From the NCBI RefSeq assembly GCF_024223415.1, contig NZ_CP100500.1: a stretch of DNA of 64,000 nucleotides. One strand, given 5' to 3'. Positions 21,001 through 24,000 of this stretch are shown in pieces. The stretch comes from Escherichia coli. Its GTDB lineage: Bacteria > Pseudomonadota > Gammaproteobacteria > Enterobacterales > Enterobacteriaceae. Position 1 is the stretch's first letter, and the number at the start of each line of letters is the position of its first letter. The position numbers were made by a program.

Positions 21001-24000
21001 ATCCAGCATCGACGCCAGTTTTTCCACCAATGTCAAACGCAGGCTAAGCGGCGCATTTAACATTCCGCCGTTCGTCCATGTCTGAAGCTGCACGCGCGCA
21101 AGAAGTTCCTGCATCAGTCGTTCACGAAACTGCTGCTGATGGGCTTGTGGAAGGCGGGCATCATCGCCCTGCGCCAGATCCACTAAAAAGCGCGGATGAA
21201 CCGACTCCAGCACGCGACCGGGGCCGTCCAGTAACGTCTTGGTCAATATCGTTCTGCCGTGAAAAGTGTTTGAATATCATCGCGTAACAGCTGGGCGTCG
21301 GTGTAAATCCAGCCGTGAGTCATCACAGTCTGCTGCAATTGCTGCTGCATCAGCCTGACCACCGATTCATTTTGTTGACGCAGAGCCAGACTTTCGCGTA
21401 AACGCGTCTGTAATTCCGTCAAACATGAAGCGAACTCAGCGAAAAAAGTATTCATGCCTGCCGTAACAGATTCATCGACCTGCTCTGCCAGAACTTTAGC
21501 CATTTGTTGGCAATAGAGATCGACTTCTGCGCTTAATGCTCGTTGCAACACACTGTAATCAACCGTTTCTGTCGGGGATTTCTCATTCCCCCGTCCCCAG
21601 TCGGGCTGATTCAACCAGCGCGAAAAAGTCTCACGCACAACGCCTAAACGCGTGCTCTGCTCGTCCGTTGCTTCCTGGCGCGAAATGACTTCACTGAACA
21701 GCTGGCGAGTGTTGAAGTGGGGAACTACGCCGTGAAAAACAGGAAAATGAAACCCAAGACGAAACCCTGACTCGCTCAATTCCATTTTGACTTGTTGCTC
21801 AATGGGGCGAATAACATCGGTTAACACCCGGCAAAGGGTGGATTCAAGCTCGGCAAAACGCAGCGTAAAGTCGCGACTGATGGTGTTCTGCGCCGTCTGT
21901 AACAGTGTCTCACAGCGGGTACGAATCTCGCTTAATGACCCCGAATCATCCTGAAACAACGCGGCTAACTGCGCATTCAGCGCATCTTGCTGTTGACGCA
22001 GAAAGTGGTTGGCGGAGGTCAGGGCCAGCTCGATTTCATGTTTAATCTCGCCGCTCACCTGCGCCTGATTGAGTTGCAATAGCTGCAAACTTTCTTCGAC
22101 CTGATGGATATTTTGCCGCAATTGTTCACAAGCGACGTTTAACCCGTGCGCACGAAAATCCAGGTATTCCCGCGCCTGCTGCGCGTAATTCAACAGTTTA
22201 TGCGCGGCAGATCGCAGAGCATACAACGAGGCGTTAGCGTAAGCGGCATGAAGCAACGCCTGAATTGGCTGGGCGAACAGCGAATCTTCCCACAACTGAT
22301 CGGCAGCATGACGAATATGTTCGAGGTCCGCCAGATCGGCATGACGCCAGCGCCTGCCGAGCGCGGCATGGGCAAAATCTTCCACCCAGCGTTGTTGCTC
22401 TGGCGGTGGTAACTTACCGTTGTTGGCTAACTCATGGCGCGCCCGATTCGCCAGGTAGCCCCACATCGACGACACCGGAAATATCTGCTGTGGCGTAATA
22501 CAGCCTTTCATCAGCGTCCCGGAAATCAGTGCCCGCACCTGGTCGGCGTCGTCACTGTTACGATCCTGTTGATCGAACTTATTGACCAGCACATACAGCG
22601 GCACCGATTGCCCCACCGCCAAAATCGCCTCACGGACCTCTTCATCGGAGATCGATTTCAGTTGCGTATAATCCAGCACCGCCAGTACCGCCGAGGCGCG
22701 TGCCAGCTGCTGGTTAAGCATTTTTTGCAGATGCGGTTGCCCGGCTTCATTTGGCCCGGGGGTATCCAGTAACGTCAACTGACCGGGATAACTCTCCAGC
22801 CCCGCCAGATGGACAAACTCCACTTCAATCACGGGAATATGCTCAATGGCGGCGTAAGCAGAAAAAGGAAAATCGACGTCCAGCGCCTTCGCCAGTCGCA
22901 CCAAATCATTCAAACTTTTCAGACAATGAAAAATAGGCTGGGCACCCAGATAATATTTTTCGAAAGCGACGCCATTTTCGATCCGCTGCATAAGCGCACG
23001 CATATCTTTATCTATTTCCAGCACATCGGTCAGATGCTTAATATCGCAATCACGCAGGCGCTGTTGTAATTTTTGAATTAAACAATCGATTGGCGCGACA
23101 TGTGAAAAATGCAGTACCGGTTCTTTTTGCCCGGGTGTATGGCGAATAAGCGTCGGCAGCGCAGTCATTGGGCGATTGCGATTAGGCAGTACCTCCGTAC
23201 CAACAATGGCATTAATGGTGGTTGATTTCCCTGCTTTCATGGTACCGACAATCGCCAGCACCATTTCCAGTCGGGAAATTTTACGCAACTCATTATTCAG
23301 CATCGCGTGACGTTCGGCGATATTAGGCTGACTCCAGGGTAAAGCCCGTTGTGGCGCATCGTCTCCGGGTACAGAGAGAGGCATTTTTTCCAGTAACTGC
23401 AACTGTTGGCGAGAAAGCTGTAACAGGCGTTCAGCCTCCTGACTTAACTCATACAGGGTCTGTGTGTACATAGAAAATTCTTCCTTAAAGCAAATTTTAT
23501 TACTTTTATTTAGCCAGATTGTTTTTGAGTTCTGTTTTCGGCTTTTATAATTACTGCAAGAAATAATTTTATATTTAGAGTGTTGTTTTTTATTAGAATA
23601 AATAACATCTTCCGATACGTTTAAAACGTCAGAAAGATAAAAATATCATGTGAATAAAAAAAAGAACAAGTAGAGCATTAACCTTATCTTAAATAATAAA
23701 TGGAGGCAAAAAGATTATTTTCTTTTTGCGTTTCCTTTCAAATGAAAACGATCGTCGTCTAAAATCAGCAGTACCCCCGACAAACTCAGGGATTTTGTGT
23801 ATAATTGCGGCCTTTTTCGGCAATCTGCCGTTTTTTGGCGCTTTTGCCCTGCTGACTTTTGAGGAAATCCACATGTCATTACCACACTGCCCAAAATGCA
23901 ACTCCGAATACACCTACGAAGATAACGGCATGTACATCTGCCCGGAATGTGCCTACGAATGGAACGACGCAGAACCTGCACAGGAAAGCGACGAGCTGAT

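Follow-up and report, generated by a model that had tools for sequence, protein, structure and literature searches.

The divergent crfC/yjdM promoter region of Escherichia coli and the probable silencing of its AT-rich crfC side by H-NS

Between the divergently transcribed genes crfC and yjdM of Escherichia coli lies DNA of strikingly low GC content, and a sequence-only reading had proposed that such DNA is curved, bound by H-NS or Fis and the seat of a silenced promoter. The question raised by the locus is whether its AT-richness has a silencing function and, if so, for which of the two genes. The window analysed here is a stretch of 64,000 nucleotides (64 kb) from contig NZ_CP100500.1 (assembly GCF_024223415.1), in which the locus is made up as follows.

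23472..23872, no strand: divergent intergenic spacer between crfC and yjdM, 401 bp, from the ORF list and the RefSeq annotation of the near-identical strain S51
21243..23471, minus strand: crfC (rdcA/yjdA) coding sequence, start at 23471, its expression taken to be governed from the AT-rich tract
23873..24208, plus strand: yjdM (phnA) coding sequence, start at 23873
23472..23721, no strand: AT-rich core, 23.6% GC, an H-NS-bound, crfC-silencing tract by orthology with K-12 and published K-12 H-NS data

The interval had been delimited exactly in the sequence-only reading, and a match to it is found in 5413 of the 5426 complete E. coli genomes. Its GC content is 31.4%, where the window overall has 53.5% and coding DNA 54%, and is unevenly distributed: in bins of 50 bp it is 22-24% over 23472-23721 and 38-48% over 23722-23872. 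The spacer is thereby divided into two functionally separate halves, an AT-rich crfC side of about 250 bp and a yjdM side of about 150 bp with ordinary composition. When a 250-bp window is moved along the 64 kb, the minimum of all 63,751 positions falls on 23472-23721 (z = -4.7), and the lowest 200-bp and 401-bp windows are likewise found inside the spacer. When the comparison is made instead with intergenic DNA, i.e., with the 29 spacers of at least 50 bp in the window (ranked with remapped genes, since beyond 24268 there is an inversion of 33 kb, flanked by IS1397, relative to the S51 coordinates), the crfC-yjdM spacer again has the lowest GC content and yet is no outlier, but the end of a continuum (z about -1.5; next-lowest spacers 32.8, 34.1, 34.3 and 36.1%; mean 47.5%, sd 10.5).

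The A/T runs that had been quoted are all present (ttttatattt at 23567-23576, A8 at 23656-23663 and ttttctttttg at 23718-23728), and such runs are only mildly above chance once composition has been allowed for: the spacer has 5 homopolymer runs of at least 5, where shuffled sequences give 2.4 +/- 1.4 (P = 0.075), and 10 pure A/T stretches of at least 8, where they give 6.8 +/- 1.5 (P = 0.03). TpA steps occur 11.2 times per 100 bp in the AT-rich region and 4.0 times in the window as a whole. The insertion sequence that had been placed right next to the spacer as IS150 is annotated as IS1397, and it lies with the REP cluster beyond yjdM, about 340-450 bp from the spacer. In an Rfam scan, sub-threshold matches to naRNA4 (REP325) were seen downstream of yjdM only.

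A silencing function for the crfC side is suggested by work on K-12. According to PMC6374313, which cites Oshima 2006 and Shimada 2011 for this, H-NS binds the crfC promoter region, and Curran et al. 2017 (PMC5797941) list crfC-yjcZ as associated with H-NS on the basis of the ChIP datasets of Kahramanoglou and of Oshima. In K-12 cells deleted for hns, crfC mRNA goes up markedly at both 30 and 42 C, according to Figure 5B of Taniguchi et al. 2019 (PMC6374313), and overproduction of SlyA, an antagonist of H-NS, raises crfC-yjcZ expression 2.6-fold (PMC5797941). The spacer of the present strain is 97.8% identical to that of K-12, and its AT core 96.4%, with 9 differences in 250 positions of the core and 0 in the yjdM half; from this orthology we infer that the K-12 results on H-NS, SlyA and FliA carry over. 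The locus is the same as the crfC promoter region displayed in Supplementary Figure S6 of Taniguchi et al. 2019, which marks the same types of element, namely FliA sites, H-NS sites and DnaA boxes. At 23649-23657 the present strain has a perfect DnaA box and K-12 one with a single mismatch; the eight further differences between the two are small and fall within the AT core.

The mechanism that these data would support is the following. H-NS would bind the AT-rich DNA on the crfC side, with the upstream AT tract at about 23580-23721 as the probable recruiter, and would spread from there over the promoter, so that crfC is kept low; loss of H-NS, or its displacement by SlyA, would raise crfC expression, and this expression would need the flagellar sigma factor FliA. 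With 76% AT over 250 bp, the core is far above the genome average in AT content over at least the 100 bp expected of an H-NS silencing tract. H-NS can bind AT-rich DNA also when its high-affinity motif is lacking. In the spacer, that motif as defined by Lang et al. 2007, TCGATAAATT, has 0 matches at two or fewer mismatches, where 1.3 are expected, and its degenerate form has 1 match, where 4.7 are expected.

From composition, one could also argue that AT-richness has no silencing role here, and that the region is an ordinary promoter spacer, with UP-element-like tracts, -10 hexamers and an AT-rich 5' UTR, to which H-NS binds passively. The position of the spacer in a continuum, with five other spacers at 33-36% GC, agrees with this, and so do the missing Lang motif and the finding that AT-richness is confined to the core promoter and UTR in Cronobacter, Kosakonia and Leclercia. 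However, a GC content of 24% across 250 bp is the compositional minimum of the 64 kb, and passive binding is at odds with the derepression of crfC in the hns deletion and with the induction of crfC-yjcZ by SlyA, as reported in PMC6374313 and PMC5797941; we regard this account as quite improbable. The spacer is probably a divergent promoter region for crfC-yjcZ (rdcA-rdcB) and yjdM (phnA), the crfC side of which is silenced by H-NS. The sequence-only proposal of H-NS binding and a silenced promoter is in this sense supported for crfC, by way of published data on the K-12 orthologue in these two papers. The evidence for silencing concerns crfC only, and the yjdM promoter is situated in the half of ordinary composition.

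The closest known counterparts are promoters silenced by H-NS and countered by SlyA, such as those of hlyE/clyA and fimB, which share with crfC an AT-rich promoter-proximal tract, association with H-NS in ChIP, derepression upon deletion of hns and induction by overproduced SlyA. In contrast to these, crfC-yjcZ has a host-like GC content and belongs to a flagellar and c-di-GMP circuit, being neither cryptic nor foreign; its AT-richness is confined to a spacer tract of about 250 bp, and the role of SlyA is known from overproduction.

Does the AT tract belong to crfC or to yjdM? In Escherichia species, Citrobacter koseri, C. amalonaticus and Yokenella, the 100-200 bp proximal to crfC have a GC content of 22-28%, while crfC itself there has 50-57%. 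In Leclercia, Kosakonia and Cronobacter, the extended AT tract that lies past the core promoter is reduced or missing, and strong silencing may therefore be specific to some lineages. In Klebsiella pneumoniae and in assembly GCA_917067325.1, crfC-yjcZ is absent altogether; the spacer between proP and yjdM then has 47-50% GC, with no 200-bp window below 39%, and still retains the yjdM promoter block. It follows that the AT tract accompanies crfC and not yjdM.

The same distribution invites the idea that the tract is what remains of a horizontally acquired crfC-yjcZ island, inserted between proP and yjdM, the AT-rich edge of which is now silenced as xenogeneic DNA. The pair is found in Escherichia, some Citrobacter, Yokenella, Leclercia, Kosakonia and Cronobacter, proP and yjdM occur without it in K. 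pneumoniae and one other enterobacterial assembly, and the next relatives that were found reside in distant bacteria, at no more than 34-45% identity. Loss in Klebsiella accounts for the pattern equally well, however; crfC and yjcZ have a host-like GC content of 50-57%, and an arrangement common to six genera must be old. We hold an island origin to be doubtful, and it would complement silencing by H-NS rather than exclude it.

To see from where crfC could be transcribed, consider the following elements of the AT core.

23535..23554, minus strand: conserved crfC core-promoter block GTAATTATAAAAGCCGAAAA, a candidate from sequence conservation and motif scan
23542-23535, minus strand: sigma-28-like -10 element GCCGAAAA, with 7/8 matches to GCCGATAA
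23549-23544, minus strand: TATAAA hexamer in the promoter block
23472..23526, minus strand: conserved crfC 5' UTR, its extent set by the candidate promoter
23486-23480, minus strand: crfC Shine-Dalgarno sequence AAGGAAG

In Escherichia, Citrobacter, Leclercia, Kosakonia and Cronobacter, the promoter block keeps a constant position at about -70 relative to the ATG, and the promoter/UTR block as a whole does so in six genera; the UTR block GGCTAAATAAAAGTAATAAAATTTGCGTTAAGGAAG is kept across genera, and GCCGA in 10 of 12 orthologous crfC upstream regions. As judged from this conservation, the core promoter of crfC is most likely the block at 23554-23535 on the minus strand, including GCCGAAAA. 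The spacer is missing from the SELEX list of constitutive sigma-70 promoters.

The literature on FliA at crfC is in conflict. Expression of yjdA decreases 12.3-fold in a fliA deletion and increases 5.3-fold when FliA is overexpressed, and in vitro the sigma-F holoenzyme transcribed most of the upstream yjdA fragments assayed (PMC1935009). By RNA-seq, yjdA is at 111, against 11 in delta-fliA cells (Fitzgerald et al. 2014, PMC4183435), and in another transcriptome crfC and yjcZ co-vary with flagellar genes. Yet no FliA peak was seen upstream of yjdA by ChIP-seq, the upstream FliA promoter was called a wrong prediction, and the sole FliA site detected at the locus is inside yjdA, where it drives yjcZ (PMC4183435). 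Class 3 flagellar promoters, read by sigma-28 (FliA), have the consensus TAAAGTTT-N11-GCCGATAA. With these, crfC has in common its -10-like element GCCGAAAA, which is identical to the -10 of tsr in Fitzgerald 2014 (PMC4183435), as well as the strong FliA dependence and the reported in vitro transcription by sigma-F. It departs from them in the -35 region, where TCTTGCAG stands 11 bp upstream of the -10 with only 2/8 matches to TAAAGTTT, and in the missing upstream ChIP-seq peak; a scan of the spacer with the full sigma-28 motif gave 0 matches at five or fewer mismatches. The block CACGTAATTATAAAAGCCGAAA, about 70 bp upstream of crfC in six genera, may be a FliA promoter with a good -10, no recognisable -35 and a location in H-NS-bound DNA. 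With a non-canonical promoter of this kind, the strong dependence on FliA and the transcription seen in vitro would be compatible with the lack of an upstream ChIP-seq peak.

The remaining candidate elements of the spacer belong to its yjdM half or to the AT core and its edge.

23777..23805, plus strand: predicted yjdM sigma-70 promoter, with -35 CCGACA at 23777-23782, a 17-bp spacer and -10 TATAAT at 23800-23805 (10/12 consensus matches)
23818-23830, plus strand: yjdM leader hairpin CGGCA-AUC-UGCCG, followed by a T6 run at 23831-23836, from a terminator-like scan and the MFE structure
23649..23657, minus strand: predicted perfect DnaA box TTATTCACA, with one mismatch in K-12
23796..23804, minus strand: predicted perfect DnaA box TTATACACA from the motif scan, overlapping the yjdM -10 hexamer
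23706..23729, no strand: AT-rich 9-bp inverted repeat GCAAAAAGA/TCTTTTTGC from the terminator-like scan, at the edge of the AT core
23797..23846, no strand: predicted peak of intrinsic curvature with roughly phased T-tracts, from a wedge model

The two perfect matches to the DnaA-box 9-mer TTATNCACA compare with 0.35 expected in the region. The box at 23796-23804 is kept in Escherichia and Citrobacter and broken in Yokenella, and its overlap with the yjdM -10 would predict repression of yjdM by DnaA. Taniguchi 2019 (PMC6374313) records DnaA boxes for the crfC promoter region. The inverted repeat is only partly retained in other Escherichia species and cannot be aligned in Citrobacter. Since H-NS, SlyA, sigma-28 dependence and DnaA boxes converge at crfC, to have called the region a regulatory hub was fair for this gene.

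Curvature was calculated with two sets of wedge-model parameters, for which the controls behaved as expected. Both sets place a peak of 16-20 degrees per helical turn at 23797-23846, within the top 0.02-0.04% of positions in the window, while the AT core is only modestly raised, with an average of about 8-10 degrees per turn where the window has a mean of 5-6; the curvature that had been proposed is predicted to be strongest in the yjdM promoter and leader, not in the AT core. The peak would be the main argument for viewing the region as a curved, activating element bound mainly by Fis or IHF, with no silencer. Its location outside the AT core speaks against this, and so do the scans of the spacer, in which the degenerate 15-bp Fis consensus (G, an A/T-rich core, C) gave 0 matches, with 0.6-1.7 expected, and the IHF consensus gave 0, with 0.04-1.3 expected; CrfC localisation is normal in delta-ihfA cells, as the localisation experiments in PMC6374313 have it. 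We consider such an element very unlikely, and the earlier suggestion of Fis binding, for which no published evidence was found, is not supported. Scans of the spacer for CRP and PhoB boxes gave no match, and those for SlyA and Lrp one weak match each, at chance level.

The -35 and -10 hexamers of the yjdM promoter are invariant or nearly so in every genus compared, those without crfC included. Three of the five base pairs of the leader hairpin have each undergone one compensatory change, seen in Klebsiella, Leclercia and Kosakonia, in a short 5-bp stem and only 11 sequences, and the observed covariation score was reached by 1 of 500 shuffles of this small set; the fold of the whole leader has z = -0.71. 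Hairpin and U run may, from these sequence features, form a cis-acting RNA element, either an attenuator or a 5' stabiliser. In the Term-seq supplement consulted yjdM has no entry, neither crfC nor yjdM has one in the supplements of Adams 2021 and Kim 2012 that were consulted for mapped starts and 3' ends, and a 2026 preprint on REP325 is silent on the yjdM promoter. The two readings that CACGTAATTATAAAAGCCGAAA is a non-canonical FliA promoter and the yjdM leader hairpin a cis-acting RNA element are tentative and rather unlikely. A cis-acting hairpin would set the levels of yjdM and of the downstream REP325/naRNA transcripts.

It could finally be asked whether the tract conceals an unannotated gene for a small protein or an sRNA. 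Candidates would be an ORF of 32 codons on the minus strand (23510-23608) and a stretch of 49 codons that lengthens yjdM in frame at its 5' end, starts with TTG at 23726 and encodes a hydrophobic segment; automatic gene callers have given YjdM versions of 140-168 amino acids in several genera. The ORF was rejected, as its start codon is ACG in K-12, and so was the extension, as the conserved nucleotides are in different frames between genera and Citrobacter has indels of 2-4 nt. An Rfam scan of 22500-25000 at E <= 1 gave no match in the spacer. No sRNA or small gene was found in the spacer, and a hidden gene is exceedingly improbable.

That H-NS represses crfC is already known from the published K-12 work, and the region is in this respect real but ordinary. 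What is added here is modest: a map of how the parts of the spacer are conserved across genera, the observation that the AT tract accompanies crfC and not yjdM, and a candidate site from which crfC could be transcribed. The biological interest of the spacer is that it determines the level of CrfC/RdcA, a dynamin-like GTPase which activates the diguanylate cyclase DgcE, and which is also linked to nucleoid partitioning and has a dose-sensitive localisation. Through the activation of DgcE, CrfC/RdcA feeds the switch from motility to biofilm, and from these roles and this dose sensitivity it follows that repression of crfC by H-NS is physiologically relevant.

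The AT-rich interval, which the sequence-only reading had placed between divergent genes, is exactly the 401-bp spacer at 23472-23872 between crfC and yjdM. The gene map is taken from the RefSeq annotation of the near-identical E. coli strain S51 and from the ORF list, which agree on both crfC and yjdM:

21243-23471, minus strand: crfC (rdcA, yjdA)
next after crfC: yjcZ (rdcB)
23873-24208, plus strand: yjdM (phnA)

A 701-bp query across the spacer is 100% identical to strain S51 and is matched in 5413 of 5426 complete E. coli genomes; the DNA originates from the E. coli chromosome. 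The spacer is rearranged in a minority of strains, and coverage of the query falls below 80% in 55 of the 5413 matching genomes. In E. coli AVS0747 (NZ_CP124467.1, 1-4012) the query is matched by its last 140 bases only, and a truncated cupin gene and an electron-transfer-flavoprotein cluster replace crfC and the entire AT tract upstream of yjdM.

The AT-rich feature is real. The GC content is 31.4% in the spacer, 53.5% across the window and 54% in coding DNA, and every A/T run quoted from the spacer is found in its sequence. When the spacer is divided into 50-bp bins, 23472-23721 has 22-24% GC and 23722-23872 has 38-48%, which means that the AT-richness resides mostly in the 250 bp on the crfC side, here called the AT tract. 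Among all 63,751 250-bp windows, the one starting at 23472 has the lowest GC content (z = -4.7), and the 200-bp and 401-bp minima of the 64 kb likewise fall within the spacer. The composition is thus as striking as claimed in relation to coding DNA; in relation to other regulatory spacers it is extreme but no outlier, being the lowest of 29 intergenic regions in a continuum that goes on with 32.8, 34.1, 34.3 and 36.1%. Given this composition, homopolymer runs of at least 5 (P = 0.075) and A/T stretches of at least 8 (P = 0.03) are in mild excess, and TpA steps occur at slightly under three times the window average.

The K-12 spacer differs from that of the window in only nine positions, all inside the AT tract, from which it follows that results obtained in K-12 should transfer. 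Taniguchi et al. (2019, PMC6374313) observed a marked increase of crfC mRNA in delta-hns; within the 300 bp ahead of crfC, FliA sites, H-NS sites and DnaA boxes are indicated in their Supplementary Figure S6. Curran et al. (2017, PMC5797941) list an association of crfC-yjcZ with H-NS in the datasets of Kahramanoglou and Oshima, and find the operon raised 2.6-fold on overproduction of SlyA, an H-NS antagonist. For the K-12 orthologue, H-NS binding and a silenced promoter are borne out at crfC by H-NS association, the rise in delta-hns and SlyA induction. The main interpretation of the earlier reading is accordingly correct and already published: the spacer is known as a promoter region at which H-NS represses a core E. 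coli operon. With up to two mismatches allowed, the spacer contains no copy of the high-affinity H-NS motif of Lang et al. The motif scan of the spacer also gave no match for the IHF, CRP and PhoB patterns or for the Fis pattern, so that the suggested Fis binding finds no support there.

Which of the two genes owns the AT tract is decided by comparison across genera, with orthologous loci collected by a genome-collection scan with CrfC and by look-ups with YjdM homologues. The divergent arrangement occurs in Escherichia spp., Citrobacter koseri, C. amalonaticus, Yokenella, Leclercia, Kosakonia and Cronobacter, and the spacer alignments contain two conserved islands separated by non-alignable sequence. 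In K. pneumoniae and assembly GCA_917067325.1, crfC-yjcZ is missing and proP diverges directly from yjdM; there the proP-yjdM spacer has 47-50% GC, its 200-bp windows all reach at least 39%, and it retains the yjdM promoter block. Since the spacer without crfC is not AT-rich while the yjdM promoter block is kept, the AT tract belongs to crfC. In Escherichia, Citrobacter and Yokenella, the GC content of the crfC-proximal 100-200 bp is 22-28%; clear AT-richness is limited to the core promoter and UTR in Leclercia, Kosakonia and Cronobacter.

The alignments and the motif search give the following elements on the crfC side:

crfC side: crfC 5' UTR GGCTAAATAAAAGTAATAAAATTTGCGTTAAGGAAG, conserved across genera
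about 70 bp from the crfC ATG, at fixed distance: block CACGTAATTATAAAAGCCGAAA, conserved across genera
23542-23535, minus strand: sigma-28-like -10 GCCGAAAA, 7/8 match, inside this block
within the same block, overlapping GCCGAAAA: TATAAA

We infer that this block is the best candidate for the crfC core promoter. At the position expected for a sigma-28 -35 element, only 2 of 8 bases match. Zhao et al. (2007, PMC1935009) found that yjdA drops 12.3-fold when fliA is deleted and increases 5.3-fold when FliA is overexpressed, and reported in vitro transcription by sigma-F holoenzyme from most upstream fragments tested. Fitzgerald et al. (2014, PMC4183435) reported yjdA RNA values of 111 in wild type and 11 in delta-fliA. 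Their FliA ChIP-seq signal at the locus lies only inside yjdA, about 240 bp ahead of its stop codon (region 21483-21510 by literature placement), where it drives yjcZ, and they judged the upstream FliA promoter of yjdA to be a wrong prediction. An RpoF SELEX peak is also found at this internal site (Shimada 2017). The operon has been assigned to the flagellar regulon, its CrfC/RdcA and YjcZ/RdcB proteins activating the diguanylate cyclase DgcE (Pfiffer et al. 2019).

The remaining spacer elements, most of them on the yjdM side, are:

23649-23657: perfect DnaA box
23777-23805: yjdM promoter CCGACA-17-TATAAT, conserved in every compared genus
23796-23804: perfect DnaA box TTATACACA, overlapping the yjdM -10 hexamer, kept in Escherichia and Citrobacter
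23818-23836: yjdM leader hairpin CGGCA-AUC-UGCCG followed by U6 (5-bp stem, T run), just downstream of the promoter

The two perfect DnaA boxes compare with 0.35 expected. TTATACACA has the sequence of the oriC R2 box, and the position of this DnaA box hints at DnaA control of yjdM. The hairpin may function as an attenuator or as a 5' stabiliser. Compensatory base changes maintain its stem: A-U to U-A in K. pneumoniae, G-C to A-U in Leclercia and outer C-G to A-U in Kosakonia. Compensation thus affects 3 of 5 pairs, a level reached in 1 of 500 shuffles (11 sequences, short stem). Cronobacter has a different GC hairpin at the same place, the fold of the whole leader is unremarkable (z = -0.71), and our literature search found no earlier description of the hairpin.

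Curvature was calculated with a wedge model and two parameter sets, which gave the expected results for phased and unphased A-tract controls. The top predicted peak, 16-20 degrees per helical turn, is at 23797-23846, over the yjdM promoter and leader, and belongs to the top 0.02-0.04% of the window; the AT tract is predicted to be only moderately above background. Within the interval, curved DNA is thus predicted elsewhere than in the AT-rich part to which it had been ascribed.

The Rfam scan gave nothing within the spacer. A minus-strand 32-codon ORF was rejected, as its start codon is missing in K-12. Gene callers gave YjdM versions of 140-168 amino acids in several genera; the corresponding 49-codon in-frame extension, with a hydrophobic stretch, was rejected because the frame of the conserved nucleotides varies by genus and because of 2-4-nt indels in Citrobacter. 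The extension is an artefact: the strand is T-rich and poor in stop codons.

Downstream of yjdM, the element read as IS150 is annotated in RefSeq as an IS3-like, IS1397-family element with programmed frameshift, present in two mutually inverted copies:

24320-25668: IS1397
57571-58919: IS1397, inverted relative to the first

IS1397 is known to target REP/BIME palindromes for insertion, in keeping with its location within the REP cluster. Within 24268-58987, the approximately 33 kb between the copies are inverted in relation to S51 and K-12, so that yjdM is followed by IS1397 and yjcO-fdhF-mdtPON, with the phn operon reversed. The yjdM-IS1397-yjcO junction occurs in one piece in none of 5426 complete E. 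coli genomes (best coverage 83-88%); the inversion is either a rare IS-mediated event or an assembly artefact. This REP cluster, which follows yjdM, is REP325, from which the HU-binding naRNA4 derives (Qian et al. 2015, PMC4550694). IS1397 and the inversion have split it into 24209-24319 (111 bp) and 57338-57570 (233 bp); in K-12, yjdM and yjdN are separated by about 657 bp. The Rfam naRNA4 match at 24226-24284 is sub-threshold, scoring 43 bits where the gathering score is 59.5.

Taken together, we consider the following scheme probable, its weakest steps being the placement of the crfC promoter and a direct role of FliA. H-NS on the 250-bp AT tract, with the crfC promoter and UTR inside it, would keep expression of crfC-yjcZ low, and expression would rise if H-NS is missing or SlyA displaces it. 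Expression would require the flagellar cascade through FliA, acting either directly via the GCCGAAAA block or indirectly, and could be modulated by DnaA. Transcription of yjdM would be driven independently, by its conserved sigma-70 promoter in the half of the spacer with ordinary composition.
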